IMG/VR virus record: IMGVR_UViG_3300037264_003623
Span: 1 to 64,000 of that record
DNA length: 64,000 nucleotides
Source: a virus
Reading direction: 5' to 3' (one strand)
Under the pieces are notes generated by a model. The model saw only the letters and a list, made by a program, of their open reading frames with translations, searched no databases and was not told the origin of the DNA. Positions 7,001 to 51,787 of the stretch are shown one piece after another (position 1 is the first letter of the stretch; the number at the start of each line of letters is the position of its first letter). The position numbers and the translations under genes are program-made.

Positions 7001-7261
7001 ATCTTCAAGTACCTCGGGTCGCGCTACCTGGGGATGTCGTTCGAGGCACCGAAGGCGATCGATGAGGACGCCCCGAAGGAGCCGAGCAAGAGCGACGAGG
7101 AGCTACGCAGGGCGGTGATCAGGGCGCTCCGGCATCCGACGCAGTACAACACCTTCGACCTCTGCGATTGCGGCGGGATGCTCTACATGGAGGGACCGTG
7201 CAAGAAGTGCTCGAACAAGCTCTGCAAGAGGAACACGGAGAGCGGCGGGTGCGGGGGATAG
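4091..7261 (+). CDS. nrdJ: Class II (B12-dependent) ribonucleotide reductase with intein and C-terminal TSCPD-like domain
   Basis: FNSPVYFN, QCAACFI, GGIQRRAA, GDPGI, NP|C-x-E split by intein, CNLASMNL, PAGTIS, GSISKT; C-terminal GEVFV...GTKFEP..SLVDYIF. Confidence 0.95.
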   Translation: MARKGISIPRLFCPGDDPYSLFKWVRKNVDAKDKDGKPVTSHEGVEVPDFWSDSAAFILSDKYFRAAHGSCPREISLKQTLDRVVNEIVKWGVEHGYFDKANGAVFGNELRVMIASQRFSFNSPVYFNVGCMDKPQCAACFILVVYDDLGSISAMVPVIVHVFSHGSGCGFNLSLLREMGAPLSRGGVASGPKSFLLGYNSFAGIIKSGGIQRRAAMLARLDDTHPDVLDFIEMKSVEERKARALVRKGYTVEEAYKTVAFQNVNLSIGISDALMKAALEGKDWVLKSVLTGKTVKVIKAMDLLDMIAHGAHFCGDPGIQLDDTMNRGNPLIRVSKILSTNPCVVGSTNVYVKEGKKTVLKRVDRIKEGSAKILSYDFEKRKPVFAKATFLGKTRQNAKVVKLKTAKGEIRLTPDHEVMTSRGWIKAADIQKGDKIYRVKVIGGVSGEFGDSQTYPGRTSQVVVPDGNVEEIEVLGMEECEEGEDVYDFSVPKHHAFFTEEALVSNCAEFVCIPNTACNLASMNLAMFYRDGAFQHEEFRHAVRISIVAQDILVGLSGYPTPEIDKNSNEYRPLGLGFTNLGGMFIKMGIPYDSDQARMLASAVSADMTATAYQASVDIAKVLGPFSGFEYNRKAMLAVLKAHKNKFNALADAHSGAADLDGISDEWEKVCQEAVKHGIRNCQVTLVPPAGTISNILDCTTAGIEPILFSATKRRLDAGGELIVPSFEIDRGLEGLGYSKEERAIITKYIESNGTLSGAPVVKPQHLPVFDPVYPLKVGDRRVSAMAQIQMMGAVQPFISGSISKTIGLPESASVEEVKETIIQAWKLGLKAISFYRSNSKMSQPLVNAILEQEKMEEEEGGPARRVMPQEVRAHIHRGVVGPGSTSETKLYIIPGEREDGTLGEVFVTLAKEGSALRGLVDALMTAVSIGLQYGVPLEVFCKKFIGTKFEPMGWTRNEKIKFATSLVDYIFKYLGSRYLGMSFEAPKAIDEDAPKEPSKSDEELRRAVIRALRHPTQYNTFDLCDCGGMLYMEGPCKKCSNKLCKRNTESGGCGG
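5117..5608 (+). mobile_element. Mini-intein (164 aa, no endonuclease) in NrdJ
   Basis: Starts CVVGST, block B LTPDH, ends VYDFSV...LVSN; the +1 Cys is the NPCxE catalytic Cys. Confidence 0.9.
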
Positions 7262-8107: not shown

Positions 8108-8455
8108 ATGGCCGGAAGAAAAGGGCCAACCATGAACCTCGTCCGAAGGCTCGGGGAGGTGAACCCCGAAAGGCTCGCGGGCGAGGTCGCAAGTCTCCGT
8201 AAGGAGAGCGAGAACCTTCGCCTCGCCCTTGGTGTGAAGGTCGCGACCTACGTTAGGACGATCAACCTGGGGAAGGGTGATGTCCTCGTCGTTCGGCCCC
8301 CGAAGGGGATTTCCATCAGGCCGGAGGCGTGGGTCGCTGTCCTGGAGCACGTCTCGAAGCTGATGAAGGATCGGCTCGGGTGGGAGGGTCCGATCCTGTT
8401 CGAGGGGAACATGGAGATCAGCAAGCAGGTCGGAGGCTCTGATGGTCAGCATTGA
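8108..8455 (+). CDS. Hypothetical protein
   Basis: Typical codon usage; overlaps dnaB start. Confidence 0.6.
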   Translation: MAGRKGPTMNLVRRLGEVNPERLAGEVASLRKESENLRLALGVKVATYVRTINLGKGDVLVVRPPKGISIRPEAWVAVLEHVSKLMKDRLGWEGPILFEGNMEISKQVGGSDGQH

Positions 8456-18600: not shown

Positions 18601-19090
18601 GTTCTACAACGGGTTCCACAAGTCGTACCCCGAGATCCGTTGGTGCTCGAACAAGTGCCGCAAGGACCTCTGCGAGAAGGGATATGTGGAGTCGATCCTC
18701 GGCAGGCGGAGGAACTTCCCGCAGCACAAGGGCAAGGACCCCAACGCATACGAGAAGAAGGAGGAGGACGGCGGGCCCCGGAGCAACCTCTGGTGGGATG
18801 GGTGGGTGGCGTGGAACGCGGTGGTCCAGGGCGCGGAGTCGGATCTGGTTCGGATCGTCATGCGGAACATCTACCGCGAGATCCTGGAGCGGCGGAAGGC
18901 AGATCCGAGGTGGAACACGGTCAAGATGCTCATTCAGGTCCACGACGAGATCGTCTATCAGGCGCCCGACGAGATCGCCGAGGACATGGCGACGTTGATG
19001 CGCGAGAAGGGGTCGAACTTGCTCACCCTAAAAATCCCCATCATCTTGGACGTCGGTGTGGGAGTGACGTGGGAGGCTGCTAAGAAATGA
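15638..19090 (+). CDS. polA: Family A DNA polymerase (3'-5' exonuclease + polymerase) with intein
   Basis: DLET, N.KFD, YAVND exonuclease motifs; T.AGRF|SCSEPNLQQ; motif A DFNQLQFR, motif B RKEAKRVNF, motif C QVHDE. Confidence 0.95.
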   Translation: MAEEKRIQDAKGRLLTLLRKGGGDEGLRSLLESDPAAVQAAARRDEARRKGMSNIEEAVASLTKAAAFSLDLETDGPSRAEATDPLRGKIVGVSFGVDFKPGSSWWFPFEGGAAAGEQVFSQVEVFRAVQPILLDPAKTLIGSNCKFDLMFLKMNGVEVRNRLFDTVVADWMMNENNRRHGLKEIVKREFDVELEKFTTAWASRDLVGGSRFSEYAVNDARYAFKLWRDVHMKFLEAKGSERLSKLFHSVEMEIVHIFMEAEMEGVCIDLAYIAALKERMETAKKEAADRAFSIMGRPFKISSPEEVSIILFGVPPEEALRSAMESRERRKPKAAKKDLVEKFNTKGLFGAPKGMFPVPLDRKGRSVLPGDNGFYSTDDSVLNGYDHPFVKALLDYRSASQTLKFFVYAYIGGDPDDPKKVGSVRDGRVYPDFHQAGTIAGRFCVSGDTVLETSVGICRISDLELPNNQQVSIITHRGQPRRILGKYYLGREEMFRVVLDNGSSIAGTRGHRVLTSGGWRHLYELRCGSRVLSSCDSARRGGVQGQAACVAGGRIQEAAGGGGYLGGGAPAEVPDREACLVCLEVSVRGEVRGADSATAPESAFDGLDREPEWGAETGQDGPQGDPPVISGCGVQSSGDGAEVGDERVSDSEESFASWIGSDGAVTSAHAGDGLGNGSSAGHSFPRAYGGGEAISREAEGVLRRPVCRLREACPASLVHPGTLGGLSVSKGPEASPEESCLLEHEQGGAATIDGSSRRGDTPCSPVLHGEVHGGLCLSGGESTGGGGRGIPQGGRGYEMSGRQKGGEDSGTGMGGSAFHDEASRDESWGSGFVYPTAAVVSIESIGEQDVWDIEVEEDHSFIANGFVNHNSCSEPNLQQVSGKKGLVKPMFVPPSGHKLVVGDFNQLQFRLAGHYAKTWFGKSNIADAYLAGMDLHTRTMRELGFDKKYPDPKEARKEAKRVNFSFIFGRGASSFAEENKRPSAEATMFYNGFHKSYPEIRWCSNKCRKDLCEKGYVESILGRRRNFPQHKGKDPNAYEKKEEDGGPRSNLWWDGWVAWNAVVQGAESDLVRIVMRNIYREILERRKADPRWNTVKMLIQVHDEIVYQAPDEIAEDMATLMREKGSNLLTLKIPIILDVGVGVTWEAAKK
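16967..18247 (+). mobile_element. Intein (427 aa) in PolA with an out-of-frame nested gene
   Basis: CVSGDT...GTRGHR...VWDIEVEEDHSFIANGFVNHN / S; central 320 aa are low-complexity in the PolA frame. Confidence 0.92.
17205..18173 (+). CDS. DUF559/Vsr-like endonuclease nested in the +1 frame of the PolA intein
   Basis: HTH LPEMARRLGMSE; AELQL..AL, YMVDFAF...LLVEVDGEYH...RD......GWGVLHF; GGAG 8 nt upstream of ATG. Confidence 0.85.
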   Translation: MSCGAAPGCLVPVIRLDGAVYKGRRHVLPEDVFRKLLEEEDIWEAELLRKYRIGRHVWYASKYLYGEKYGEQIRRLHRNRLSMALTGNRNGERKPARMVPKEILQSFLDVGYNLPEMARRLGMSEFLIRRNLSLHGLARTGQLPRHMQATDLEMVRRLDTLSPGLMEAAKQYHERPKEFYDALYVAFARLVQHLWFIQGLSGGYRYLRDRKRLPKNHVCWSMNRAELQLSMALLDAGIPHVRQFFMERYMVDFAFPEANLLVEVDGEYHKADAVTKCRDVRKAAKIQERGWGVLHFTTKQVETNPGEVVSSIRRRLSSALSP

Positions 19091-22071: not shown

Positions 22072-24477
22072 ATGGGAGACAAGCTTCAGGACCTCTTCAA
22101 CGGCGTCAGGAAGCAGCACGGGAAGTTGAGCGTCAGGAAGGCATCGGAGCTGGAGGGGGGGATCCCGAGGATCCCCACCGGCATCTTCTGGCTCGACGCC
22201 GACATGGGCGGCGGGATTCCCATCGGTCGGATGACCGAGGTTGTCGGCCTCAAGTCGTCGGGGAAGTCTTCCCTCATGGCGAAGATCGTCGCCAGCGCCC
22301 AGCGGCTCTGCCGGAAGTGCTTCCGCCCGATCACGGAGTGGGAGGAGGAGGAGCGGGAGCGCAAGTCCGTCTCCGTGGATGTGGCGACCGGCGAGGTCAT
22401 CGAGAAGATGGTCCCCTACATGGTGAAGGTCGCGAAGGACTGCGCCAATAAGTGCAGGGAGGATTCCGACGGGAAGAAGAAGAAGCACCCGGGCCGGATG
22501 ACCGTCCTGTGGGTGGATCAGGAGGGCTGCGTCTCGGAAGACAACGAGATCCTCGACCCGATGACGGGTCGAATCGCAACGGTGGGAGAGTGGGTTCGAG
22601 GCCAGGGCTGCAACGTCGAATCATTGGCGGGAAATCGCCTTTCCGTGGTCCCGATTTCCTCGAAGTGCGATTCTGGTATCCGTCCGGTTTTGCGGATCTT
22701 CACGGCGACCGGCTGGGTGGAAGTCACTCCGAATCATCCTCTTCTCGTTTGGAGAAGAGGGCAAACGTGGATTCCTGCGGCTGAAATTCAGCCAGGGGAC
22801 TACATCGCTCGTCCGCGATGGAGCTCGTTCGAGGGGGGGCGGCATCCTGATGCGGAGGTCGCGGGCCTTCTGGGGTATATGCTCGGAGATGGCGGGATCG
22901 CGGAATCGGCCAGTAGTCCTACGATCACAAACAAGGGTGATCCAGAGATCATGCGCCGGTTTTCGGAACTGGTTTCTTATTTTGGGTGCAAGATCAAGAA
23001 GTACGATGACCGGCACTATCGGATCATCGGGGAGGATAGTAACGGGAGTAGCGGGGCCAATAAGGGGCGGAACGGGGTGAAGAACTGGTTTCGAGAGAGG
23101 GGGATGCTCGTTCCATGCTACGAGAAGTTTCTACCGGAGGAGGTATTCCAGTGGGACAACATCTCCGTCGGGAGGCTTCTTGTTGGCCTGTTCATGACGG
23201 ACGGGTCCGTCAACATTGCTAGGGCATCGGCGGTTATCGGGTTCACTTCTAGGCGGTTAATTTTGCAAGTTCGGCACCTTCTCTCCAGATTGGGAATCTT
23301 GGCGCACTTGAGCATCTACCGGTACAAGAATCCCCGCCACCGGGATCAGCATACGCTTGCTATCAATGGGGTGCCTAATCTTCAGCGATTCAGGGAGTTC
23401 GTTCCCCTGTATGGAGAGAAGGGCTCGAAGCTCGATTCCTGGTGTCTTTCGGAACGGAAGCAGATTCATTATCCCGACGATTTCTACCTTCCTGGATACA
23501 GGAACGCGATGTGGAGTCATCGGGGGGCGTTCGAGAACGAATCCGATGTATGGTGGGATAAGGTGGTGAAGATCGAGCCGAGAGGGGAGAAGCATTGCTG
23601 GGACTTTGGGGTTCCCCCGCATAAGAACTTCGTTGTCAACGATTTCGTGGGGCACAATACCTTCACCCCGGACTTCTACAGGAACTTCGGGGTGGACTGC
23701 GACGACGTCTACCTTTCGTCTCCCGAGACGGGGGAGCAGGCGGTGGACCTCATCGATGCGGCCATGCGGACCGAGGAGGTGGACCTGATCGTGGTGGACT
23801 CCGTGGCGGCCATGACCCCGAGCGTGGAGCGTGAGGCGTCTGCCGAGGACCTCCAGGTCAGCCTCCAGGCGAGGAACGTGAACAAGGGGCTCCGGGTGTG
23901 GACGGCGAGCCTCAACGCCCTCGGCAACCGGGAGGGGAACGACTGCACCCTGCTTCTGGTGAACCAGCTCCGCACGAAGATCGCTTCCTTCTACACCGGG
24001 TACGTCAAGCCGGGTGGGGTGGGACAGGAGTTCGCGACCAGTGCTGAGCTCTTCCTCAAGCAGAAGGACTACATCCTCGACACGAAGGGCGCTACCGTGG
24101 CGGAAGAGGTCGAATACCTGGTCGACAAGAACAAGGTCGGGACTCCGAAGGGGGTGGGGAGGTATAGGATGTGCCTCAAGGCGCACCCGGCCTTCCCGGG
24201 GATGCCCGACCCCTTGCGGCTGCCGGGCGACACATGGGACGACGCCACGGTGCTCAGCGTGCTAAGTGAGCGCGGGTTCCTGGCCGAGGACCAGAAGACC
24301 AAGGAGGTGATCCTCTTCGGCCAGCGGTTCCCAGACCAGCAGGCCCTCCAGATGGCCCTGTTCCAGAAGGGGGACCTCTACTGGAAGGCGCGGAATGCCC
24401 TGATCCAGTTGATCGTCAACACGCCGAGCGACGGGAAGCTCAAGGAGAAGAAGAAGAAGGGCGACAAGGAGGAGTGA
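22072..24477 (+). CDS. recA: RecA/UvsX recombinase with intein
   Basis: IPTG..LD..MGGGIP.GR.TE..G..SSGKS, VDQEG|T, PETGEQA, IVVDSVAA, NQLR, KNKV. Confidence 0.92.
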   Translation: MGDKLQDLFNGVRKQHGKLSVRKASELEGGIPRIPTGIFWLDADMGGGIPIGRMTEVVGLKSSGKSSLMAKIVASAQRLCRKCFRPITEWEEEERERKSVSVDVATGEVIEKMVPYMVKVAKDCANKCREDSDGKKKKHPGRMTVLWVDQEGCVSEDNEILDPMTGRIATVGEWVRGQGCNVESLAGNRLSVVPISSKCDSGIRPVLRIFTATGWVEVTPNHPLLVWRRGQTWIPAAEIQPGDYIARPRWSSFEGGRHPDAEVAGLLGYMLGDGGIAESASSPTITNKGDPEIMRRFSELVSYFGCKIKKYDDRHYRIIGEDSNGSSGANKGRNGVKNWFRERGMLVPCYEKFLPEEVFQWDNISVGRLLVGLFMTDGSVNIARASAVIGFTSRRLILQVRHLLSRLGILAHLSIYRYKNPRHRDQHTLAINGVPNLQRFREFVPLYGEKGSKLDSWCLSERKQIHYPDDFYLPGYRNAMWSHRGAFENESDVWWDKVVKIEPRGEKHCWDFGVPPHKNFVVNDFVGHNTFTPDFYRNFGVDCDDVYLSSPETGEQAVDLIDAAMRTEEVDLIVVDSVAAMTPSVEREASAEDLQVSLQARNVNKGLRVWTASLNALGNREGNDCTLLLVNQLRTKIASFYTGYVKPGGVGQEFATSAELFLKQKDYILDTKGATVAEEVEYLVDKNKVGTPKGVGRYRMCLKAHPAFPGMPDPLRLPGDTWDDATVLSVLSERGFLAEDQKTKEVILFGQRFPDQQALQMALFQKGDLYWKARNALIQLIVNTPSDGKLKEKKKKGDKEE
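22528..23658 (+). mobile_element. LAGLIDADG intein (377 aa) in RecA
   Basis: CVSEDN...TPNHP...LGYMLGDG...LFMTDGS...NFVVNDFVGHN / T. Confidence 0.92.
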
Positions 24478-41303: not shown

Positions 41304-42305
41304 ATGAACACCAAGGAAAGCAAGGTATGGGGGGCCAAGCTCGCGTCGGTCCTGGGCACCACGATCGAGAAAGGAACGCGAGAGGGTAAGAGGGAGGAGA
41401 CTCTATGCCTTGAGGAAGGCGAGGAATTGCTGACTCGCGGAGGCCCAGGTTCAGGCCATTTCGGGCATGCCGGGCGTCCCGGCGCGGTGGGTGGCAGCGT
41501 CGAGGGAGGGGTGCAGGCCGGTCGGGCCGAGGCTCCCGAGTCCCCCGAGCACTTCAAGTGGTCGGGCAAGTTCGAGATGAAGCGCAAGGCGGGGCCGGGC
41601 GTGAACCTCTCGATCATCAAGGACCCCCGCCAGCGCCACTTCGAGGTCCACGGGGCGGCTGACGCCAAGGGCAAGCCGAAGCGAGGGAAGGCCGTCATCC
41701 GGACCAACGGAGACACCATCGAGCTCGATCACGATGAGCTCCACGACCTTCGGTCGAAGATGCGCTACGTCCAGATGACGAATACCCGCGACATCCAGGA
41801 GATCGCGGGGAGGGAGATCGTCAGGGGAAACACGATCGAGGTCGAGCACAAGGGGAAGACGGTGAGGATCCCCGTGAACGAGGACACCGTCCGCGAGATT
41901 GATCGCGCCTCCCATGCCTCGAAGAAGGAGGGGTTCTCCTTCACAGGCGAGAGCAAGCGGGAGATCCACAGGGCATACGACAAGATGTCGCGGGGGAACC
42001 CGATCCACATCGTGAAGGACATGGGGTTCTCCAAGGCCGGGAAGTTCGCGGCGTTCCGGGCCTATGTGGACGGGCCGAAGCGGTCGAAGAAGGACGTGGA
42101 CCGCTTGGTCGAGAGCAAGCGCGGCGTGGTGTCGAAGTCGACGGTCCAGGCCCTTCGACGGACGGCGAAGCAGTTCTTCGAGACTAGGAAGTCGGGATGG
42201 GATGCGAGGGACGGGCGATCCGCCACGGACGCCATGAAGCACTACCAGAAGGCGGCGGCCCTGTTCTCCCGGATCGAGAAGTCGGGCGAGCGGAAGAGGA
42301 GGTGA
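41304..42305 (+). CDS. Basic protein with leader and GGPGSG tag (putative virion cargo)
   Basis: GGPGSGHFGHAGRPGAVGGS motif; SD GGAGG. Confidence 0.7.
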   Translation: MNTKESKVWGAKLASVLGTTIEKGTREGKREETLCLEEGEELLTRGGPGSGHFGHAGRPGAVGGSVEGGVQAGRAEAPESPEHFKWSGKFEMKRKAGPGVNLSIIKDPRQRHFEVHGAADAKGKPKRGKAVIRTNGDTIELDHDELHDLRSKMRYVQMTNTRDIQEIAGREIVRGNTIEVEHKGKTVRIPVNEDTVREIDRASHASKKEGFSFTGESKREIHRAYDKMSRGNPIHIVKDMGFSKAGKFAAFRAYVDGPKRSKKDVDRLVESKRGVVSKSTVQALRRTAKQFFETRKSGWDARDGRSATDAMKHYQKAAALFSRIEKSGERKRR

Positions 42306-42308
42306 AAA

Positions 42309-42599
42309 ATGGAGATCCCGAGCAATCTCAAGCCCTTCATCACACAGGAACAGTGGAGCCGCCTGCGGGTCGGAAATCTCTCCCCCGAGGACCAGGCGAC
42401 CGTGCTCGACATCCTCAACGGCGGGTTCGAGGGGATGGACCCCGAGAAGATCGACCCTGAGGACGTCGAGGAGACGGTGGATTTCGTCGAGGGGATCGTG
42501 GACGACCTCCTGGAGGAGGTCCCCGACCTTGACGAGGATGAGCTGGTTGCCGCGGAACAGACATCCGACGCCATCCTCGAAGAGATGGCCGAGGAGTGA
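42309..42599 (+). CDS. Small, very acidic protein
   Basis: D/E-rich; SD GGAGGTG. Confidence 0.7.
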   Translation: MEIPSNLKPFITQEQWSRLRVGNLSPEDQATVLDILNGGFEGMDPEKIDPEDVEETVDFVEGIVDDLLEEVPDLDEDELVAAEQTSDAILEEMAEE

Positions 42600-42655
42600 A
42601 GCACCGCCGCCTGAAGGCGGCTCTCGCCACATTTTTGTAGACGGAGGGACTCTCG

Positions 42656-43060
42656 ATGGGGGAGCAGGCGGACGGGCGATTCTACGGCCCTCACCTGACG
42701 ATCGACGCCTACGGGTGCTCCAAGGAGAGGCTCGCGAGCCTGGAGGCCGCGTTCGACTTCCTGGACCGGATGCCGGGGGTCATCGGGATGGAGAAGATCA
42801 CCAAGCCTTACGTGTTCCGGCATCTCGCGCCGCCGGACCCGGAGTGGGGAATCACGGGGGTGGTCATCATCGCCACGAGTCATGTGAGTTTTCATTCTTA
42901 TCCCCAGATGGGGGTGTGCTTCGTGGACGTCTTCTCATGCAGGCCGTTCGATACGCGGAGGGCCGTGGATTTCTTCCAGGAGACGTTCGGAGGGGACGAG
43001 GTCGAGATCCGCGAGGTGAAGCGCGGTCTCCATTTCCACGAGACAGGAGGCGCTCGGTGA
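42656..43060 (+). CDS. speD: Pyruvoyl-dependent S-adenosylmethionine decarboxylase-family proenzyme
   Basis: G.HL.ID.YGC, GITGVVII.TSH.S.H.YP, VDVFSC..FD. Confidence 0.85.
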   Translation: MGEQADGRFYGPHLTIDAYGCSKERLASLEAAFDFLDRMPGVIGMEKITKPYVFRHLAPPDPEWGITGVVIIATSHVSFHSYPQMGVCFVDVFSCRPFDTRRAVDFFQETFGGDEVEIREVKRGLHFHETGGAR

Positions 43061-43323
43061 GCGTAAAAAAGGTTCCGTGCCCGGTGTGCAACAAGGACAT
43101 GGAGTACGCGGGGCAGGAGGGAGGGCACAAGGAGCGGGCCAAGAGCGGCGAGGTCATCGAAACCGTCCATGTGTTCTTCATGTGCGAGAAGTGCGACACG
43201 TCGGTTCGCCTTCGCTTCCGGAAGGACGGCCAGACGGGGGACCTCTGGCGGGAGATCCAGAGGCGGAAAGCGGTAGGCAAGGTGGTCACCGACTTCGGTG
43301 GGAAGTTCGGAGAGATGGGATGA
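43057..43323 (+). CDS. Zn-ribbon protein
   Basis: CPVC...CEKC; coupled at both ends. Confidence 0.65.
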   Translation: MSVKKVPCPVCNKDMEYAGQEGGHKERAKSGEVIETVHVFFMCEKCDTSVRLRFRKDGQTGDLWREIQRRKAVGKVVTDFGGKFGEMG

Positions 43324-45161
43324 GAACGCAGGATAGCAAGCGGTTCGCAGGCCTTCTCCTGGGCTCCCTGAACAAGGCGGAGTTCGAGGAGGAGGCGCAC
43401 CCGAGGGACGCCACGGGGAAGTTTGCCCCGAAGGAGGAATCCGCCCCTGCCGAGTCCGAGCACAGGAACCTTCGGTCCCTCGCCAGGGAGGCGTCCGCCC
43501 TGAGGGCCATCGGGGACGAAGGGGCAGCCAGGAAGATCGAGCAGAAGCTCCAGGCCGCCAGGGGGAAGGCAGAGGAGGGCCGTAGGGAGAGGATGCCGAA
43601 GCCGCTCGCTCCCCCTCGCCCCCAGCCAGCGCCCGCACCGAGGCCGCCGAGGGCGGCACCCGTTCCCCCTCCCCCGCCTCCATCTCCACCGAAACCGGCG
43701 AGATCTCCTCTTCCAAGGGCCGGGCCCGTCGATGTGGCCCATGAGCAGATAAGGATCGACAACGCGAGGGCGAAGGGGGATCTCTTCCGCGCCATGCGGA
43801 GGAGGATGGACGCGATCAAGGATCCGGCGAAGATGATGAACTTCGCTGATGCCCTGGACAGGAACAAGTACGATCAACTGGCCCAGGAGGCCAGGAACAA
43901 GCTCTTCGGCATGGGGTATGACAGGGATGGGAAGCCGGTCGATTTCGGGGCGAAGCCTCCTGCACCGTCTCCCGAGCCTCCTCCCTCGCCCGCGCCGCAG
44001 AGGCCCGCTCTGGCCGTCGCGGAACCTAAGCAACTGAGGCACGAGAAGGAGGCCGTCGGCGAGCTGAAGCGCAGGGCGTCCGGCTTCGACGATCTGGAGT
44101 CCAGGGTCAGGGAGAGGGTTCTGAGGCTCAAGAACCAGCAGAATAATCCACAGAAGGTTCGGAGCTTCGCCGATGAGCTGGAGGCACAGGGGGAGAAGTA
44201 TCTTGCGGAGGAGGCCAGGAACGCCCTCTGGGAGATGGGGTACAAGCCCGACGGCAGTCCGGTGCCGGAGGGCGAGAGGTTCGCGAGGCCCGCGCACGGT
44301 GTCCCGAGGCCAGCCGCGCCGCCTCCTCCTTCTCCTCTTCCTGAGGCCAGGGGTGCGACCGGCGTGAAGCACCCGATGTCGTCCGTCCACGACAGCGGGG
44401 CCGCCATGAAGGATGTCCAGTTCAATTTCCACGACAAGATTCACAAGGCGAAGGAGATGGGTGGCGGGATCGGGGAGACGCACAGGATCGAATTCAAGGA
44501 TGGGAACAAGGCCATCTACAAGCCGACGGCGGGGTCGGGGCTCCAGCATTACCACGATATGGGCCGTGATGTTAGGCGGACGATCGACTGGCAGATTCCG
44601 GAGGGGCAGCGGGAGGCCGTCGCCTACGCGATCAGCCGGGAGGCGGGTTTCGACATCGTGCCTCATGTCGAGCTGGTGAACTACCCGGTCGGGCGTCCGG
44701 GCGGGGGACACGCGATGGCTTGGGTGGAAGGTCAGGAGGCGGCCCACGCGGGGCAAAAGCTGAGGGATGATGCGAACGCCAATCATCCAGACCTGCACCG
44801 GATTGTCGCTCTCGACTTCATCATGGGCAACACCGACAGGCACTCCAGGAACTTCATGGGTGGCAAGGATGGACGATGGTACGCGATCGACAACGGGCTC
44901 GCCGGGTGCAAGGACATGGACATGTCGGAGTACAGGTCCGGACCCCATAGTATGTTGGAGGGGAGTCGGATACCTGACGAGGTCAAGGCCGAGATTCGAG
45001 CGATCAAGCCCGATGTGGTCAAAGGTGCCATGCAGAAGGCGGGATTCAAGCCGGTGGACATCAAGGGTGCCCTCGCCAGAATCGACTATTTGTCGAAGGC
45101 TCGAACATGGAAGAGCACCTGGGATGACAGTAGTGCAGCCAAGAGGCTCTACGAGGAGTAG
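43320..45161 (+). CDS. Leader/HPR-tagged protein with C-terminal HipA/PI3-4-kinase-like domain
   Basis: AIYKP, REAVAY, IVP, DFIMGNTDRH..N, AIDNG; internal repeat FAD.L......LA.EARN.L..MGY..DG.PV. Confidence 0.85.
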   Translation: MRTQDSKRFAGLLLGSLNKAEFEEEAHPRDATGKFAPKEESAPAESEHRNLRSLAREASALRAIGDEGAARKIEQKLQAARGKAEEGRRERMPKPLAPPRPQPAPAPRPPRAAPVPPPPPPSPPKPARSPLPRAGPVDVAHEQIRIDNARAKGDLFRAMRRRMDAIKDPAKMMNFADALDRNKYDQLAQEARNKLFGMGYDRDGKPVDFGAKPPAPSPEPPPSPAPQRPALAVAEPKQLRHEKEAVGELKRRASGFDDLESRVRERVLRLKNQQNNPQKVRSFADELEAQGEKYLAEEARNALWEMGYKPDGSPVPEGERFARPAHGVPRPAAPPPPSPLPEARGATGVKHPMSSVHDSGAAMKDVQFNFHDKIHKAKEMGGGIGETHRIEFKDGNKAIYKPTAGSGLQHYHDMGRDVRRTIDWQIPEGQREAVAYAISREAGFDIVPHVELVNYPVGRPGGGHAMAWVEGQEAAHAGQKLRDDANANHPDLHRIVALDFIMGNTDRHSRNFMGGKDGRWYAIDNGLAGCKDMDMSEYRSGPHSMLEGSRIPDEVKAEIRAIKPDVVKGAMQKAGFKPVDIKGALARIDYLSKARTWKSTWDDSSAAKRLYEE

Positions 45162-45181
45162 AGCGGGTCAGGAGGAGAAAC

Positions 45182-45499
45182 ATGCTCATCGGGATGAGGG
45201 TTCGGAAGGACACGGATAAGGGCGAGGCTACCGTGTTCGAGTACCGGATGGGCCAGAATGGCAGGGTGGCCCTTACGGTCGGGGATCCGAACGAGATCGT
45301 CTCGGAGATCACGCTGGGGTCGGGGGACAACACGATGATCGAGGACATGGGCGGGTCATACGGGGTGAGGATGCCCCCGTTCGCGAAGGGGGCCGAGAAG
45401 ACATACACCCCCGCCGACGGGGTGAGCTTCATCCTTGCGCTCCTCGTCCAGTTCAGCAGGAACAACGGCTACTCGTGGGCGGAGCCGATCCTCTCATGA
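45182..45499 (+). CDS. Small kinase-partner protein (putative immunity)
   Basis: Paralog of 46686..47006; SD AGGAG. Confidence 0.75.
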   Translation: MLIGMRVRKDTDKGEATVFEYRMGQNGRVALTVGDPNEIVSEITLGSGDNTMIEDMGGSYGVRMPPFAKGAEKTYTPADGVSFILALLVQFSRNNGYSWAEPILS

Positions 45500-46689
45500 A
45501 GACGTTCTACTCCAGGAAGTTCGCGAGGTTCATGGGTTCCATCCTGGCGAAGGCCACATGGGACCCGGATCTCCACCCGAGGAGCGAGGGCGGGAAGTTC
45601 TCCAGGACCGAGGGAGTCTCTGAGGAGAGGCGGGTCGCGGAGAGGCTCATGGGGACCTCGGCGGATCAGCTTGAGGCGGAGGCACGGGAGACCGAGCGGG
45701 AGGCTTCCGCGCTGAGGGCGATGGGGAAGGGCGAGAAGGCCGCGATGGCCGACGCCGTGGCGAGGGACCTGATGGAGAGGGCGAAACTGGCGAGGGAGCC
45801 GGTCAGGGTGTTCAGGCCGGGATCGGAGCCGAGGAGGCCCGCCCCGCCGATAGATCCCACGAGGCATCCGCAGGAGTCCGTGAGGGGGAGGGCAGAGACG
45901 ATGAGAAAAGCCTCGGGGAAGCCTGAGGCTTTCATCATGAACACGCGCAGGGTCATGGGGGGCAAGGGAGAGTGCCACCGAGTCCTCTTCGACGACGGGA
46001 CCAGGGCCGCCTACAAGCCGACGGCGGGGTCCGTCCTTGTGCAGATGGAGAAGCAGGGCCGGGGTGAGGAGATCACGATCGACCCGAAGATCCCGGAATC
46101 GAAGCGCGAACGGGCCGTCTTCGATCTCAGCGCGATGGCCGGGTTCGACGTGGTGCCCCCGGTCGAGCTCGTGGACTACGATGGGGTGGGGTCCCCCGGG
46201 GGCGGGCACGCTATGGCATGGGTGGACGGGCAGGAGGCCATTGACATCGAGGACCAGTACTACAAGGACATCTCCGCGAACCATCCCGACCTTCACCGGA
46301 TTGCGGCGCTCGACTTCATCACGGGCAATGTAGACCGGCACCAGGGGAACTTCATGAGGGGGAAGGACGGGCGCTGGTACGCGATCGACAATGGCCTCTG
46401 CTTCACCAGGGACATGGAGCTCGGGATGTCGTGGTCCGATGTCATGCGGAAGCTCATGATGCACGTCACGCCGCCGGAGGTGCGGGCGGAGATCGCCTCG
46501 ATCGACAAGGACGCTATGGGCGGAATCATGAAGGAGGCGGGCTTCGACGCCGTGGACATCAAGGCCGCGCAGACGAGGCTGGATGTGCTCAAGGCCTTGG
46601 GCGGGTGGGGGACGGAGGGGCAAATGTACGGGGCGGCCGAGGACGCCTACTTCCAGGCGGGTGGGCGCAGGCGGCCAGGGAGGGAATGA
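45496..46689 (+). CDS. Second leader/HPR-tagged HipA/PI3-4-kinase-like protein
   Basis: AAYKP, RERAVF, DFITGNVDRH..N, AIDNG. Confidence 0.85.
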   Translation: MKTFYSRKFARFMGSILAKATWDPDLHPRSEGGKFSRTEGVSEERRVAERLMGTSADQLEAEARETEREASALRAMGKGEKAAMADAVARDLMERAKLAREPVRVFRPGSEPRRPAPPIDPTRHPQESVRGRAETMRKASGKPEAFIMNTRRVMGGKGECHRVLFDDGTRAAYKPTAGSVLVQMEKQGRGEEITIDPKIPESKRERAVFDLSAMAGFDVVPPVELVDYDGVGSPGGGHAMAWVDGQEAIDIEDQYYKDISANHPDLHRIAALDFITGNVDRHQGNFMRGKDGRWYAIDNGLCFTRDMELGMSWSDVMRKLMMHVTPPEVRAEIASIDKDAMGGIMKEAGFDAVDIKAAQTRLDVLKALGGWGTEGQMYGAAEDAYFQAGGRRRPGRE

Positions 46690-47006
46690 TCGTGCTCATT
46701 GGGGTAAGATGGGTGAGGGACGTGGACACCGGGCGGGATGTGTCGTTCGAGTACAGGCTGGACCCGAGGACCGGCAAGGCTGTCCAGGTCGCGGGGCCCG
46801 CGAGGGCGAACGACGAGGTGATCCTCTCCCCGTGGGATGGGGTGATGGGCCCCGAGATCGCCAAGTATCACGGGATGGATTTCAAGCCGGTTCCGAAGGG
46901 CGGGAGGAGGCTGACCCCGGACGACGGGGTTGACTTCCTTCTCGCCGTTCTCGTCAAGTACGCGAGGAACACCGGCTACGGCAGGGTCGAGCCGATCAGC
47001 CGATAG
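46686..47006 (+). CDS. Small kinase-partner protein (putative immunity)
   Basis: LIG.R..D.D.G...FEYR...TP.DGV.F.LA.LV...RN.GY...EPI shared with 45182..45499. Confidence 0.75.
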   Translation: MIVLIGVRWVRDVDTGRDVSFEYRLDPRTGKAVQVAGPARANDEVILSPWDGVMGPEIAKYHGMDFKPVPKGGRRLTPDDGVDFLLAVLVKYARNTGYGRVEPISR

Positions 47007-47015
47007 GAGGATCAG

Positions 47016-48341
47016 ATGGAGACGCCGTCGAGCAGGGCCACGAGCAATCTGATTTCCAAGTCCCTGGAGACCGTCCAGGAGACGCCGGGCCAGGTGTCCT
47101 CGAAGGAGATGCAGGACCTCTCCGCGATGATCCTGAAGGCGATGGACGACCCCGCCTTCGTCGAGACGGTCTGCCCGAGCGGCGGCTGCCCCGAGCTCCG
47201 CGGCCTCCTCCTGGAGGTGGTCGAGCGGGCCAAGGAGGAGGACGACTCCCCCGAGGTCAAGGCGTGCGTCTCGAAGAAGATCCCGATCCTCATCGAAGAG
47301 GGATATCCGAGAGCCCAAAGTGTCGCGATCGCGTTCTCGGTTTGCCGCAAGGACCCGTCCGTCGCCGACAAGGCGGTGAAGGTCGAGGGGACGCCCCGCT
47401 ACATGACCGAGGCGGAGCTCCGCGCCATGAAGCCGAAGAAGCCGGAGACCGACACGGACACGGAGATCGAGTCCGCGATCGGGTGCGATCTCGACGCGCT
47501 CAACAGGACGACTTCCGTCCTGATTTCCAAGGCCGGGACCTCTGATGGCGCGAAGCTGGGGTGGGAGACCCGTAGGGGCGGAGCGCCCACTGATGAACCC
47601 AAGGCTGGGATGCCCTCCAGGCAGGAGTGGGATGGGTTCCAATCGAACGCTGATGCGGTATTCGATGTCAGCAGGGGCGCGGTCAAAGAGGTTGAACGGA
47701 TCGAGGAGAGGGCCATAGAAGCGGAAGAGGAGGGTAGATCCCGCCTACATCCGTTCGGCGTGAAAGAGCCGACGACGCCGAAGGGCGTGGAGCAGGCTCT
47801 GAACAAGCTGGCGGATGTCGCGCCGAAGGCCGCTGACCTCGCGGCGAGACTGAAAGGCGTCCCTGGGGTGGACGAGGGGAAGAGGAAGGCCGCTGAGGAC
47901 AAGATGCGGGGATGGAAAGGTGGGGTGCCCCGTGAGGAGATGCAGGATTTCAACGACATCGTGTCCGACATCTACACGATGGTAGACAGCGCCAGGGCGG
48001 ACCATGACCCGAAGTACATGGAGGGGTCCGAGCCCGTGACGCGGCCTTCCGTGGGCAAGGAGCTCGTTCTGAACCTGGGCGTGCAGAAGCGGTTCTTGTC
48101 CCTGCAAGACCTTGAGGGATTCAAGCCGACGAAACCGGAGGACGTCCGCCCGCCACGGGAGAGCACCAGGCACGAGGGCGAGCCGGAAGACTCGGGGCTT
48201 CGTCGCCTCATCATGCCGGGATGGGCCCGAAAGGGCGGCCAGGTTGCGCCTCCCGGTGACGTCCCGAAGGATAGGATCAGGGGCGATGGCTTGACCGAGA
48301 TGCTCATGCCGAGCAGGAAAGAGGACGAGCCCAAGGAATAG
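47016..48341 (+). CDS. Multi-module tagged protein (putative virion cargo)
   Basis: EGYP.AQ.VAIA.S module; ISK-AGTSDGAKLGWETRR. Confidence 0.75.
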   Translation: METPSSRATSNLISKSLETVQETPGQVSSKEMQDLSAMILKAMDDPAFVETVCPSGGCPELRGLLLEVVERAKEEDDSPEVKACVSKKIPILIEEGYPRAQSVAIAFSVCRKDPSVADKAVKVEGTPRYMTEAELRAMKPKKPETDTDTEIESAIGCDLDALNRTTSVLISKAGTSDGAKLGWETRRGGAPTDEPKAGMPSRQEWDGFQSNADAVFDVSRGAVKEVERIEERAIEAEEEGRSRLHPFGVKEPTTPKGVEQALNKLADVAPKAADLAARLKGVPGVDEGKRKAAEDKMRGWKGGVPREEMQDFNDIVSDIYTMVDSARADHDPKYMEGSEPVTRPSVGKELVLNLGVQKRFLSLQDLEGFKPTKPEDVRPPRESTRHEGEPEDSGLRRLIMPGWARKGGQVAPPGDVPKDRIRGDGLTEMLMPSRKEDEPKE

Positions 48342-48351
48342 CGCACACGAT

Positions 48352-49059
48352 GTGCGGAAACCGGAGGAATACCCCGTGAAAGAGCGCAAGGACAAGGACC
48401 TGGGCTCGATTTTCAACGCCAAGTCCCTCCTCGACGGGCAGGGGACCCCACAGCGGGACACCGCCCAGAGCAGGAAGGTCGCCCTGGACTTCGCCGGGAT
48501 GCTCGCGAAGGATGGCACGAGCGAGGGTGCGAAGAAGGGCTGGGAAACTCGACGCGGCGCGGCAGCCCTGTCCGAGGGCCCCAAGGAGTTCAGAGACTTC
48601 ATGGTAGGAGCCATCGCCCAGCGCGACACCCCTGATGCCAAGGCGACGAAGGAGATGGCGGAGAATCTCAAGGACAGTGATGTTCCCCTGAAGGATGCTT
48701 TTACCGCCGCTCAGAAACGGGTTGACCAGGCCGACGCCCTCGCCGGGGAGACCCTCAAGCGGTTCGGCTCCGCCCTTTCCCAGTATCACGTCGACAACAT
48801 CAATCGCGAGCGGGAGACGATCAAGCGGGCCATGGATGTCGCCGACAGGCATGTCCGGGAGAACAGCCGGGGGTATGCCGCCGACGCCATCAGCAACGCC
48901 GTCGAGGGCGCGGACCTCATGTCGATCTGGGCATCTTCCGCGGTCGGAGAAGTCTGGAAAAAGCAGACCCGGGAGAGGGGGGTGGGGAAGTCCGGCACTT
49001 CCGAGGGGGTCCCGAAGACCCTCAAGGGGTCGTTCCTGACCGAAGGCGACACACAATAG
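48352..49059 (+). CDS. Tagged protein (putative virion cargo)
   Basis: LAK-DGTSEGAKKGWETRR; start codon uncertain. Confidence 0.7.
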   Translation: MRKPEEYPVKERKDKDLGSIFNAKSLLDGQGTPQRDTAQSRKVALDFAGMLAKDGTSEGAKKGWETRRGAAALSEGPKEFRDFMVGAIAQRDTPDAKATKEMAENLKDSDVPLKDAFTAAQKRVDQADALAGETLKRFGSALSQYHVDNINRERETIKRAMDVADRHVRENSRGYAADAISNAVEGADLMSIWASSAVGEVWKKQTRERGVGKSGTSEGVPKTLKGSFLTEGDTQ

Positions 49060-49084
49060 GTTGCGTTTCCCATCCGGTTCCTTC

Positions 49085-49112
49085 TTGGCGAATACGCTAA
49101 AGGGTGTATAAT
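49085..49112 (+). promoter_or_regulatory. Promoter TTGGCG-N16-TATAAT, leaderless-type
   Basis: ATG 49119 lies 7 nt after the -10 box. Confidence 0.65.
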
Positions 49113-49118
49113 AGGATC

Positions 49119-50681
49119 ATGGAAGTGGGCGCGATCTATGACGTCCAGAAGGAAGGCACCTCCGAGGGTGCCTACCGCGGGTGGGAGACTAGGAGAGACG
49201 GCCCGAGGGCCGCCCCTTTCGTCGAAGCGCGGAGGAAGATTGGGAGCATGGTGGAGGAGGCCAACGAGGAGTTCAAGAGGGAGGTTGCTCTTCACCTGAA
49301 GGGTATCCCGAGCGACTACGCGGGGATGACACGCAGGGACAGGGAGAACAGAGCCGAAGGCCTGAGGCTCGTTCGGGATGCAGTCGAGAGACTGAGGGGG
49401 GCCGAGGTCGCGGAGGCGGACAGGGGTACGCTCGCCAGGATGATCGACTACGCGGAGCGGGAAGCCCCCATCATCAGCGAGCGCGACAAGGGGGACCGGA
49501 GGTGGCACGAGGAGTTCGACGCCTTCCTCGCCGAAGCCGAGGAGGTCGCGTCCAGGGCGAAGGAGCCCGAGGGAATGGAAAAGGGCGAGGTCGTCGTCTG
49601 GGAGCCGAGCAGGCATCCCCGGGGGGAGGGGGGCCGGTTCGCCCAGGCCGAGGCCAGGGATCCCGAGGAGAGGCGGAGGCTGGTCGAGTCCGCGGCGTCC
49701 GAGGCCGCCAGGCGGGTTATCGACAGCATGGGCCGAGACGCGAACAGGGTGATCTACGATACGGTGAGCGAGTTCGGCCTGTCCGGCAACGACGCGGCCG
49801 AGGCGTTCCAGATGGCCGACCGGAGGCTGCGGAAGGAGCGGGAGCTGGATGTGCTCCGCAAGGCCACTGGGGACCTGCTCTCGAAGGTCGAGTTCGAGGA
49901 GGACGAGCACCCGAGGGACCCCGCAGGCAGGTTCGCCTCCAGGGGAGAAGGGGTCGCGCCGAGGGCCGATGCCGTCTCGAAGGAGGAGATCGACAGGGTG
50001 TTCGACGGCAGGGCGAAGAACCCGAGCACGCCCGATGAGCAGAGCCGCCTGCACCAGGAGATCGAGGCCTCGGCGGACAGGGCGAGTCGGATGTCGCAGG
50101 AGGACCACATCTCCGGGGTGCCCGAGAGGATGACCAAGGTATCCGAGAGGGCGGAGGCCGTCGTGATGTCCCTCGGCAGGAGGATCATGGAGGAGGGCGC
50201 AGCTAACTGGAAGGAGTTCGTCTTCGCGGTGGAGAACGGGAGCGGGGACGTGGTGGGGATGAGGGAGGGCGACAAGGAATCAGCGTCGTGCGTCGGGATC
50301 TACGGGGGGATGGACAGGGATAGGGGATACACGTTCGTCCACAACCATCCCACAAGCAACTCCTTCTCGGACGTGGACGTGATCATATTCACTAGGATCC
50401 CCCAGTTTACGAGGGCGGTGGTGGTCAGCGGGATGTGGACGTACATTCTGGAGAAGCCGCCGGGGTGGAACTTCAGGAAGGTTTGGGGCGTGGACGATGC
50501 CAGGGCGGAGTACCTCCGCCAGAGCGACGTGCTGACGCCCAAGTACAAGCCCCCCGCCAACCCGGACGGGACGAGGGACGACGCCAGGGACAGGGTCGCG
50601 TGGCGGGAGCAGGGCCATGAGGTGATATCCAACCTGGCGAAGCTCTACGGGCTGTCCTACAGGAGGGAGAAGAGGGCATGA
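49119..50681 (+). CDS. Three-tag polyprotein with C-terminal JAB/MPN-like domain
   Basis: One GTSEGA tag, two HPR tags; E...FVHNHP.S.SFS..D. Confidence 0.75.
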   Translation: MEVGAIYDVQKEGTSEGAYRGWETRRDGPRAAPFVEARRKIGSMVEEANEEFKREVALHLKGIPSDYAGMTRRDRENRAEGLRLVRDAVERLRGAEVAEADRGTLARMIDYAEREAPIISERDKGDRRWHEEFDAFLAEAEEVASRAKEPEGMEKGEVVVWEPSRHPRGEGGRFAQAEARDPEERRRLVESAASEAARRVIDSMGRDANRVIYDTVSEFGLSGNDAAEAFQMADRRLRKERELDVLRKATGDLLSKVEFEEDEHPRDPAGRFASRGEGVAPRADAVSKEEIDRVFDGRAKNPSTPDEQSRLHQEIEASADRASRMSQEDHISGVPERMTKVSERAEAVVMSLGRRIMEEGAANWKEFVFAVENGSGDVVGMREGDKESASCVGIYGGMDRDRGYTFVHNHPTSNSFSDVDVIIFTRIPQFTRAVVVSGMWTYILEKPPGWNFRKVWGVDDARAEYLRQSDVLTPKYKPPANPDGTRDDARDRVAWREQGHEVISNLAKLYGLSYRREKRA

Positions 50682-51787
50682 AGGATCCGAAGGTGCCGAT
50701 CACCGAGTGGGACATCGACGACCGCGGCAACGTGCCTCCCTACGGGAACGCCGTCGCGAAGGAGGGCACTTCTGAAGGGGCGAAGCTGGGATGGGAAACG
50801 AGGCGGGAGGGCGGACAGGCGGAGGAGAAGAAGCCGGACGCCTCATCCTTCGAGACGCCCCCCGAGAATTGGCAGCAAAGTCTGCCGTACCAGCATCGGC
50901 TGAACTTGGGTGCATGGACGGAGTGGCTCACCAACCTGAGGATGTCCCATGTCTACCGCCAGGGGGGCGAGGCCAAGCCCTACCGGCCAGAGTTCGCCGA
51001 CGTCGCGGCTCGGCGCGAGGTCGGGCGGTGGCTCGATCGCAACGACGATAAGATGATCTACCACATCTCGCGGAAGGTGGACATCTCGCATGGGCCGAGG
51101 GACGAGAAGATCGGCGAGGCGGTCGGGCTGGTTCAGGAGATCGTTCGCATGGCCCAGGCCGAGGCGCGGAGGGAGGCCGAGACGCAGGCCAAGAAGAACC
51201 CTCTGTCCGGCGTCCTGTTCGGGAAGGCCAGGGTCGTGGGCGGATTCCCACTCACGCAGGAGGACGCGCTCGCGAAGGAAGGCACGTCCGAAGGCGCCAA
51301 GAAAGGGTGGGAGACCAGGCGCGAGGGCGGCGGGGCGCTATCCGAAGAGGAGCGCAAGAGGGCCATTCGATCCCTTGAGGTGCGGGGCGCGGCGGACAGG
51401 GGCGACGTGTCCGTGAAGATCGTCCCCCTTCTTACCGGGGAGGGGTTCGGGGTGGAGACCACGGTGGCTGGCGACAGGAGGAACCCGAGGGAGCCCGCCA
51501 TGACGATGGAGGAGGCACGCAGGTTCGCCCTGGAGCAGCTCCAGAGCCCCCGCCCGACCCAGACCCCCGAGATGAAGCCGAAGCCCGAGGCGGAGGAGAA
51601 GAAGCCCTCTCCGACGCCCGTGAGGCCCTACAGGAACCCCGGAGACTTGGCCGCCGACTACAAGCGGCAAGGTATCCCGAAGCAACGTGCCTGGGATCAG
51701 TTCATCATCGACACTGTCCTCTCCCCGAAGTTCCGGTCGGAGCAGGTGGACGCGAGGGAGTTCTTCCAGGCCTACGATAGGGCGTAG
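50678..51787 (+). CDS. Two-tag polyprotein (putative virion cargo)
   Basis: Two AK-EGTSEGAK.GWETRREGG copies. Confidence 0.75.
   Translation: MKDPKVPITEWDIDDRGNVPPYGNAVAKEGTSEGAKLGWETRREGGQAEEKKPDASSFETPPENWQQSLPYQHRLNLGAWTEWLTNLRMSHVYRQGGEAKPYRPEFADVAARREVGRWLDRNDDKMIYHISRKVDISHGPRDEKIGEAVGLVQEIVRMAQAEARREAETQAKKNPLSGVLFGKARVVGGFPLTQEDALAKEGTSEGAKKGWETRREGGGALSEEERKRAIRSLEVRGAADRGDVSVKIVPLLTGEGFGVETTVAGDRRNPREPAMTMEEARRFALEQLQSPRPTQTPEMKPKPEAEEKKPSPTPVRPYRNPGDLAADYKRQGIPKQRAWDQFIIDTVLSPKFRSEQVDAREFFQAYDRA

Follow-up and report, generated by a model that had tools for sequence, protein, structure and literature searches.

Header tags behind a phage-specific residue in a viral gene cassette: candidate signals for protease-released capsid cargo

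Why should proteins with quite different payloads carry the same short peptides, each of them placed directly behind a lysine or an arginine? The question is raised by a cassette of genes at 41.3-51.8 kb in a stretch of 64,000 nucleotides (called the window below), which is the first 64 kb of the 109,083-bp viral contig IMGVR_UViG_3300037264_003623 of IMG/VR, a linear contig that is about 75% complete and has a GC content of 62%. An initial annotation of the window had taken these peptides for tags that punctuate polyproteins delivered with the virion. Our analysis leads to a related answer: the cassette probably encodes capsid cargo that is addressed by leaders and tags and released by a protease, as a variant of the phage polyvalent proteins and of the internal proteins of T4 type. 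Cleavage at the tags, loading into the capsid, ejection and a reader of the tags are what we infer from the comparisons described below.

A six-frame motif search of the window distinguished three types of tag, named T1 (GRPG), T2 (HPR) and T3 (GTS). T3, with the pattern xGTSEGAxxGWETRR, occurs five times, T2, with the pattern [WF]x4-6HPRxxxG[KR]F, occurs four times, and T1 (GGPGSGHFGHAGRPG), which here reads GGPGSGHFGHAGRPGAVGGS, occurs once, while the same search found none of them elsewhere in the window. All tags lie in the coding frame of open reading frames (ORFs) on the + strand with a high GC content at third codon positions (GC3), and all of them lie where the initial annotation had placed them. 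The glycine codons of T3 are at 47535, 48514, 49155, 50765 and 51281, behind lysine codons at 47529, 48508, 49149, 50759 and 51275; the histidine codons of T2 are at 43398, 45574, 49614 and 49908, behind lysine codons at 43374, 45550, 49581 and 49884; and T1 spans 41439-41498 behind the arginine at 41436. In addition a partial T3, SGTSEG, is present on the same strand at 48991-49008 behind the lysine at 48988, and the motif search places a sixth T3 outside the window, at genome position 92624. Most tag-bearing phages have one type; this phage has all three.

The tripeptides directly before 11 tags are ISK, LAK, VQK, VAK, LAK, VEK, LNK, LAK, MEK, LSK and LTR, that is, [ILVM]-x-K in ten cases and L-T-R in one, so that the hydrophobic-x-K/R pattern described earlier is found at 11 of 11 sites. 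Since the background of [ILVM]xK in this proteome is only 1.36 per 100 residues, such an arrangement is far above chance. What is maintained at these sites is the peptide. The six T3 copies are identical at 11-14 of 15 residues (73-93%), and 64% of the codons for their identical residues are synonymously different; because the synonymous sites are saturated, selection acts on the T3 peptide and not on the DNA, in agreement with the earlier proposal, and this saturation excludes a DNA-level repeat, a recent duplication, gene conversion or a DNA recombination signal.

The tags are by no means confined to this phage. Degenerate DNA scans of IMG/VR, whose totals are lower bounds, gave for T1 at least 205 in-frame copies in at least 115 stretches of 30-70% GC, with up to nine copies in 11 kb and the consensus GGPGSGN[FHWY]GHxGRPGx[VRI]GGS, in effect five Gly-X-Y triplets in a row; for T2 they gave at least 150 copies in at least 118 stretches of 31-70% GC. 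T3 is rarer: beyond this contig, six contigs of IMG/VR have it, as do 13 stretches of GTDB genomes, and a word-index search for it returned two close relatives only. Among the 48 longest T1-bearing ORFs of the matches listed, 20 have a portal domain and three a MuF domain, which bears out the earlier statement that a GGPGSG-like motif occurs in head-associated proteins. Other domains in these ORFs are NUDIX (9), several ADP-ribosyltransferases, 2H/LigT, topoisomerase IB, Zeta toxin, glutamine deamidase, PI3_PI4 kinase and DUF2213. The T1 carriers are the portal- and MuF-fused polyvalent proteins of Iyer et al. 2017. For T2, an example from a cultured phage is the portal protein of the Faecalibacterium phage FP_Brigit, in which DRMD is directly followed by the tag FNEADHPRDENGQF near residue 678.

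Several other searches gave little. Peptides of 25-28 residues covering the tags, compared with INPHARED by tblastn, gave nothing useful, the queries being short and the low-complexity filter on; a text search of the literature for the tag strings found no relevant paper; and the MuF-GNAT fusion of Microbacterium phage Caron has neither tag nor protease. Two side observations belong here. The triplets of T1 (GNF-GHx-GRP-GxV-GGS; L033-L147) look collagen-like or polyproline-II-like, with an AT-hook-like GRP core, which may hint at the reader of this tag; and other T3 matches lie in contigs of metagenome-assembled genomes (MAGs) of Kiritimatiellia, Verrucomicrobiales and Luteolibacter, and from these one may get a hint of T3's host range.

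The evidence that matters most for the meaning of the tags comes from the residue before them. For 44 contigs with at least two T1 copies (131 copies in total), the identity within each contig was scanned from position -12 to position +40. Position -1 is identical within a contig at 0.93, against 0.18 in shuffles (0 of 5000), while positions -2 and -4 to -12 stay at background (0.07-0.19) and position -3 is mildly raised (0.29). Such a sharp conservation at -1 together with a mild one at -3 has the shape of a P1/P3 site. Between phages the residue at -1 varies, being K, D, R, L/A, N, E, H or F, and the P3 preference goes with the class, namely V/I/L ahead of K or R, and R/K ahead of L or A. 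Moreover, the class residue is common to T1 and T2 wherever a contig has both types (D in L044, L048, L055 and L080; K in L094); T2 copies have a D, K or R class residue 0-4 residues before their Trp, and T3 in other lineages has N in place of the K of this phage (LAN/D versus LAK/D, with the slash marking the site). The lysine of the initial annotation is accordingly right for this phage, which has K and once R, and wrong as a property of the tags, as other phages use the other residues just named.

If the residue at -1 were read by a head protease, it should vary with the family of that protease, and this is the case in two disjoint sets, 49 T1 contigs and 50 T2 contigs. Strong DUF2213 matches (E<1e-33) are found in 10 of the 11 D-class T1 contigs and in 0 of the 38 others (p 1e-9), while Peptidase_S78 is found in 4 of the 13 K-class T1 contigs and in 0 of the other 36 (p 0.003). 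The T2 contigs give the same picture, with strong DUF2213 in 15 of 23 D-class and 0 of 27 K/R contigs (p 2e-7), and Peptidase_S78 in 8 of 27 K/R and 0 of 23 D contigs (p 0.005). In the T1 set the S78 matches are often inside the tagged ORF itself, and divergent DUF2213-like matches are found in contigs of the L/A class and of the H/N/Q class; a ClpP-type protease, present in 2 of 49 contigs, was uninformative as a class marker. HK97 gp4, the prototype of S78, cuts the capsid protein after Lys103. The covariation of P1 with the protease is what cleavage by the head protease at the tags predicts; it is the strongest indirect evidence for such cleavage and is hard to explain otherwise.

Which protease would then serve in this phage? 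The prohead protease that the initial annotation had called for is predicted outside the window, in a protease-scaffold gene of 569 residues at genome positions 106317-108026, between the portal gene (103349-106333, with an intein) and the gene of the major capsid protein (starting at 108088 and truncated by the end of the contig). The gene consists of an assemblin-fold domain fused to a scaffold-like tail. Residues 1-150 are modelled by AlphaFold2 with a predicted local distance difference test score (pLDDT) of >90 and show an assemblin fold; the model matches T4 gp21 (5jbl) with a Z score of 10.7 and a root-mean-square deviation (rmsd) of 2.7 over 120 residues, the herpesvirus proteases with Z scores of 7-9.8, and BFVD entries named prohead protease, XkdF or COG3740 with E values of 1e-8 to 1e-11, and H41, S98 and H131 are invariant. 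The protease had no Pfam match at E<=1 and no PHROG match, and a Pfam domain was found in 0 of 68 relatives. By its model it shares the fold of the S78 and DUF2213 proteases, and by sequence it lies outside these families. As for the capsid protein, those of six relatives have a variable N-terminus of 10-20 residues and then a conserved NE[ED][ML]IEK/TI[TA]T, and this conserved IEK/T site fits, though it does not prove, a propeptide cut after K.

The proteins of the cassette are marked not only by tags. A leader with the pattern M-x-T-x-x-S-[KR]...F/W...L...[ILV]xK heads five proteins, whose genes start at 41304, 43320, 45496, 47016 and 95079; it ends with LNK, LAK, IEK or ISK, and the same leader is seen on kinase and JAB-like relatives in other contigs, while about half of the tagged proteins do not have it. 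Because the kinase relatives in L013 (~6753) and L016 (~9788) keep the leader with degenerate T3-like peptides behind it (AAGFKAWEKRQR, GAEWSNRRK), tags can decay while the leader persists. With its S-[KR]-[RK]-F and a mildly hydrophobic stretch, the leader is superficially like the Tat motif S-R-R-x-F-L-K, and one might take it for a Tat- or Sec-like export signal by which tagged proteins are secreted or targeted to the membrane. This we regard as very improbable: the twin arginine is not conserved, the pairs being KR, RK, ER, KK and AR, the hydrophobic stretch is only about ten residues long, with a K at its end and acidic residues after that, the payloads are enzymes of cytoplasmic type (kinases, JAB), and a leader is absent from half of the proteins concerned. 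A Tat signal would call for a conserved twin arginine followed by a hydrophobic region of 12 or more residues and an AxA site, and the leaders do not match this pattern.

How leaders, tags and payloads are combined can be followed along the cassette, in which all genes are on the + strand. Cargo gene 1 (41304..42305, 333 residues) has the leader MNTKESKVWGAKLASVLGTTIEK (41304-41372), a spacer of 22 residues ending with LTR, the T1 tag and a payload of 268 residues without a match in Pfam, PHROG or ESM Atlas; its ortholog in a related phage is 46% identical and has T1 after K. Cargo gene 2 (43320..45161, 613 residues) has the leader MRTQDSKRFAGLLLGSLNK (43320-43376), the T2 tag AEFEEEAHPRDATGKF (43377-43424), a region that is Pro-rich and helical, and, at the C-terminus, a PI3K/PI4K-like kinase; cargo gene 3 (45496..46689, 397 residues) has the leader MKTFYSRKFARFMGSILAK (45496-45552), the T2 tag ATWDPDLHPRSEGGKF (45553-45600) and again a PI3K/PI4K-like kinase. 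In cargo gene 4 (47016..48341, 441 residues) the leader METPSSRATSNLISK (47016-47060) is followed by module A up to residue 172, ISK, the T3 tag AGTSDGAKLGWETRR (47532-47576) and module D of 269 residues. Cargo gene 5 (48376..49059, 227 residues) begins with an N-terminal part of 45 residues ending with LAK, followed by the T3 tag DGTSEGAKKGWETRR (48511-48555) and a payload without assigned family.

The partial T3 mentioned above stands 22 residues before the stop of cargo gene 5, whose C-terminus is a decayed T3, SGTSEG...GSFLTEGDTQ and stop. In the relative P0002 a GSFLTEG segment runs directly into a K/EGTSEG tag, and because the two are contiguous there, the boundary between cargo genes 5 and 6 looks like a polyprotein that was split at a tag. 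Cargo gene 6 (49119..50681, 520 residues) most likely starts at the ATG 49119 (MEVGAIYDVQK/EGTS) and not at the listed 49104; MEVGAIYDVQK is followed by T3 (49152-49196), module X, MEK, T2 (49584-49640), module Y, LSK, a further T2 (49887-49934) and a payload of predicted JAB/JAMM fold at about 50091-50678. Cargo gene 7 (50678..51787, 369 residues) has an N-terminal part of 28 residues ending with VAK, T3 (50762-50806), a module of 157 residues, LAK, T3 (51278-51322) and a module of 154 residues, and neither of its payloads had a family match. Two or more modules delimited by tags are therefore present in one polypeptide in cargo genes 4 (two), 6 (three, including JAB) and 7 (two), while the kinase genes have a single payload. 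Most of the payloads gave nothing in Pfam, PHROGs and ESM Atlas.

The payloads that can be assigned are those the initial annotation had named, kinases and a JAB domain. The kinase of cargo gene 3 scores 32.5 bits with Pfam PI3_PI4_kinase, above the cut-off of 27.1, and that of cargo gene 2 scores 26.3 bits, just below it; DRHxxN (D280-R-H..N285) and DNG (D298-N-G) are invariant in the three kinase paralogues of the genome (alignment A1). A search of IMG/VR gave 20 relatives of the kinases, which are mostly untagged, and this rules out that the tags are part of the kinase domain. In the JAB-like domain of cargo gene 6, E42, H84, H86, S93 and D96 (E..HxHP..SxxD) are invariant or nearly so in 48 sequences. 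Its AlphaFold2 model has a pLDDT of 94, and in the PDB the best-matching structures are without exception JAMM/MPN proteins: 6fnn (a Rpn11 homologue) with a Z score of 7.3 and an rmsd of 3.3 over 113 residues, then Cap3 (9ild) with 7.0, AMSH/Sst2 with 6.7-7.0 and RadC with 6.4. A JAB/JAMM fold with a zinc motif is thus supported by the model, the Z scores being middling. The query and its 47 relatives had no match to the Pfam families JAB, Prok-JAB and RadC, and on this account the payload is a distinct sequence family.

How freely the tags are used is seen in this JAB-like family. A word-index search had given no relatives, while an exhaustive HMMER search of 1.84 billion representatives gave 55. 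They are headed by T2 (e.g. P0073-75, P0084, P0088), by T1 (P0080, P0081, P0101, P0124, P0127) or by T3 (P0096, P0077, P0083), in most cases with the tag after K; several have an MRTxxSxRF leader, and 4 of 48 are fused to MuF. Since one payload family carries any of the three tags in different phages, T1, T2 and T3 are interchangeable headers.

The same freedom is seen between close relatives. Two related contigs of about 110-116 kb have a capsid protein that is 91% identical and share the cassette, in which each of their tags stands behind K. In GTDB they are assigned to MAGs labelled Methanomicrobiales and Bathyarchaeia, and they are probably phage contigs that were mis-binned by co-assembly; the closest relatives are L153, L161, L163 and L164 (CAZKEV010000002.1, CAYNQC010000001.1), of 109-116 kb. 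When modules were compared with a relative with the tags masked, modules A and D of cargo gene 4 corresponded to modules 1 and 4 of a five-module protein of 911 residues (50% and 69% identity), and modules X and Y of cargo gene 6 were found in reversed order in a protein of 869 residues, behind T3 instead of T2. Four payloads, namely the JAB-like one, that of cargo gene 5 and both of cargo gene 7, had no counterpart in the relative, whose cassette has neither the S-adenosylmethionine (AdoMet) decarboxylase described below nor the second kinase. Modules are inserted, reordered and re-tagged at tag boundaries. Together with the JAB-like family, this comparison supports what the initial annotation had wished to see tested in relatives, that payloads swap while tags persist.

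Between the cargo genes lie several small genes. The one at 42309..42599 (+) encodes a very acidic protein of 96 residues without tag, an accessory gene within the cassette that the relative keeps in the corresponding place (33% identity) and that had no family match; its composition is reminiscent of DNA-mimic anti-restriction proteins. Next to it, at 42656..43060 (+), is a homologue of AdoMet decarboxylase of 134 residues (Pfam AdoMet_dc E 5e-26, phrog_3125) without tag or leader, which had no counterpart in the cassette of the related phage L164 (116 kb) and could be a counter-defence enzyme that depletes S-adenosylmethionine or a polyamine enzyme. Each kinase gene of the cassette is trailed by a paralogous gene of about 105 residues that overlaps or abuts the kinase stop, at 45182..45499 (+, 105 residues) and at 46692..47006 (+, 104 residues), and one copy is kept in the relative. 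The former had no family match in Pfam and PHROGs, and its ortholog there is rel_10499 (E 1e-13); these paralogues could be candidates for a kinase inhibitor, a chaperone or an immunity partner.

Nearly all genes of the contig are on the + strand. The window at 1-40 kb is taken up by a replication and nucleotide module, with class II ribonucleotide reductase, DnaB, PolA, RecA, a helicase, an AAA ATPase and RlaP, and the cassette follows. Outside the window, the gene of the terminase large subunit (85264-90162, with inteins) is followed, before the portal, by the gene of the sixth T3-tagged protein (92378-93598, L005) and by the gene of the third PI3K/PI4K-like kinase (95079-95981, L005), which has a leader. 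A tagged gene and a leader-bearing kinase thus stand between terminase and portal, and therefore the cargo genes are at two loci. The cassette had no match by megablast among 50,697 phage records. As a separate observation, inteins or Hint domains are unusually plentiful in this phage, several of them with LAGLIDADG or HNH endonucleases: the genes of class II ribonucleotide reductase, DnaB, RecA, terminase large subunit and portal are interrupted, and intein-bearing genes lie at 4091-7261, 8442-11045, 15791-19090 and 22072-24477 of the window and at genome positions 85264-90162 and 103349-106333.

From these results a grammar can be proposed, in which an N-terminal leader specific to a group of phages is followed by hydrophobic-x-K/R, one of the three header tags and a payload, and the unit of tag and payload may be repeated. 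Leader, tags or both would bring the proteins into the procapsid, where the leader would act like the capsid-targeting sequence of T4. The predicted assemblin-fold prohead protease (106317-108026) would cut after the K/R before every tag, by which leaders would be removed and modules separated. The freed modules, each with a tag at its N-terminus, would comprise two kinases of PI3K/PI4K-like type, a JAB/JAMM metalloprotease and six or more orphan domains; they would remain inside the head and reach the host together with the DNA.

Not all observations favour such a scheme. Cleavage and packaging are steps that we infer, and [ILVM]xK is a motif of low information. The statistics of the association between P1 and protease ignore phylogeny, with many contigs being fragments, and the protease of this phage itself matches neither Pfam S78 nor DUF2213 (none at E<=1). 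In its scaffold the cut motif was sought as a dense pattern, which was not supported, with 14 [ILVM]xK observed and 10.5 expected from composition. The kinase relatives in related phages are mostly without canonical tags, and the third kinase of the genome has no tag behind its leader. The net charge of the tags is near neutral, and because of this a binding to DNA, as the initial annotation had it, is not obvious. The cassette sits directly behind the replication module, and since about 55 kb separate it from the portal, protease and capsid genes downstream, it is outside any head operon. Finally, 15-20 residues after the site are kept in phages whose proteases, portals and capsids differ, and a cleavage site does not explain this.

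The last point speaks for another account, in which the proteins are capsid cargo and the tags are docking or linker peptides for one conserved partner, such as the portal, the DNA or a host factor. The cargo would then be loaded uncut, or be cut elsewhere, for instance by the embedded JAB or by proteases that the host supplies after entry, and the class residue would be part of an interface with a phage-specific partner. A near-invariant tag of this length in phages with unrelated proteases is indeed more than a protease site needs; five Gly-X-Y triplets in T1 would suit such a role, the tags also head single-module proteins, and release by embedded peptidases after delivery has been proposed (Iyer et al. 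2017, PMC5512222). However, a phage-specific conservation at the single position -1, accompanied by -3 and linked to the protease family, is expected for P1 and P3 and hard to obtain from docking, and cargo fused to a portal could not leave the capsid without a cut; we therefore hold this account to be rather unlikely. Less likely still, and in our view quite doubtful, is that the proteins of this phage are no virion cargo at all and serve in the infected cell as early or middle takeover proteins, with leader and tags used for complex assembly, localisation, regulated turnover or processing. It is the position of the cassette, just after the replication and nucleotide module and far from the head genes, and the untagged metabolic and acidic genes within it that speak for this possibility. 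Yet in many other phages portal, MuF and prohead-protease domains are found fused to these tags and to the JAB-like family, a tagged protein and a leader-bearing kinase are encoded between terminase and portal in this very genome, and the leader ends in [ILV]xK just as the conserved N-terminal site of the capsid protein does.

Taking the proteins as protease-released cargo, how do they compare with known systems? The cargo-loading peptides of encapsulins are alike in being short, Gly-rich and portable addresses on unrelated enzymes for a compartment of HK97 fold. Their usual place is the C-terminus, they bind to a defined pocket in the shell, and they are not tied to proteolysis. In the polyproteins that RNA viruses of eukaryotes encode, unrelated domains are likewise joined at junctions whose P1/P1' residues suit the protease of the virus, while the proteases and domains are others and no universal tag follows the junction. 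The prohead protease sites of T4 read L/I-x-E and those of phiKZ-like phages S/A/G-x-E, and we know of no universal tag after the cut in the cargo of T4 or phiKZ. The internal proteins of T4 and the ejection proteins of phiKZ and SPN3US (PMC9026906, PMC5694885, PMC10052503) share with the present proteins a short N-terminal leader that ends in the consensus of an assemblin-fold prohead protease, here as a candidate site, with a hydrophobic or small P3 and a fixed P1, and their cargo is delivered with the DNA. In contrast to them, P1 is here K/R, a widely shared header tag follows the predicted cut, and several modules are joined in one protein.

The closest likeness is with the phage polyvalent proteins (PMC5512222) and the MuF polymorphic toxins (Jamet et al. 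2017, PMC5576092), which are strings of unrelated enzyme modules (kinase, JAB/RadC-like, ADP-ribosyltransferase, NUDIX, 2H) thought to travel with the DNA. The kinase and the JAB fold of this cassette belong to the typical repertoire of the polyvalent proteins, and the same tags sit inside the portal and MuF fusions of other phages. Here, unlike in those proteins, the modules are distributed over eight genes without a portal or MuF fusion, have N-terminal leaders and are encoded far from the head genes. An analogy with polyproteins and processing by embedded or assemblin-like peptidases had already been proposed (Iyer, Burroughs, Anand, de Souza and Aravind 2017, PMC5512222), while a text search of the two papers (PMC5512222, PMC5576092) found no mention of glycine-rich motifs, linkers or junction motifs.

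A wider and more tentative idea, to which we give somewhat less than even credence, is that the three headers, written as GGxGSGN[FWH]GHxGRPGxxGGS, [WF]xExxHPRxxxGKF and xGTSEGAxKGWETRR, are interchangeable words of a general cargo code in thousands of tailed phages. A P1 matched to the head protease would mean 'cut here', and a conserved reader, be it the portal channel, the packaged DNA or a host factor, would retain the module or send it into the host. To our knowledge, the choice and release of phage cargo are understood for a few model phages only (T4, P1, phiKZ-like). A grammar of leader, P1 and header would make the identity of cargo a prediction testable by virion proteomics, and if the general code holds true, the sequence of any phage would tell which effectors it injects, and phage heads could be supplied with foreign proteins. 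The grammar would also flag candidates for first-strike anti-defence enzymes, here two kinases, a JAB domain and at least six orphan modules. The JAB payload resembles the deconjugating enzymes of CBASS- and Bil-type defence systems, and that it acts against ubiquitin-like conjugation in defence is speculation. Moreover, the covariation between P1 and protease could be used to derive the specificity of uncharacterised prohead proteases from genome sequences.

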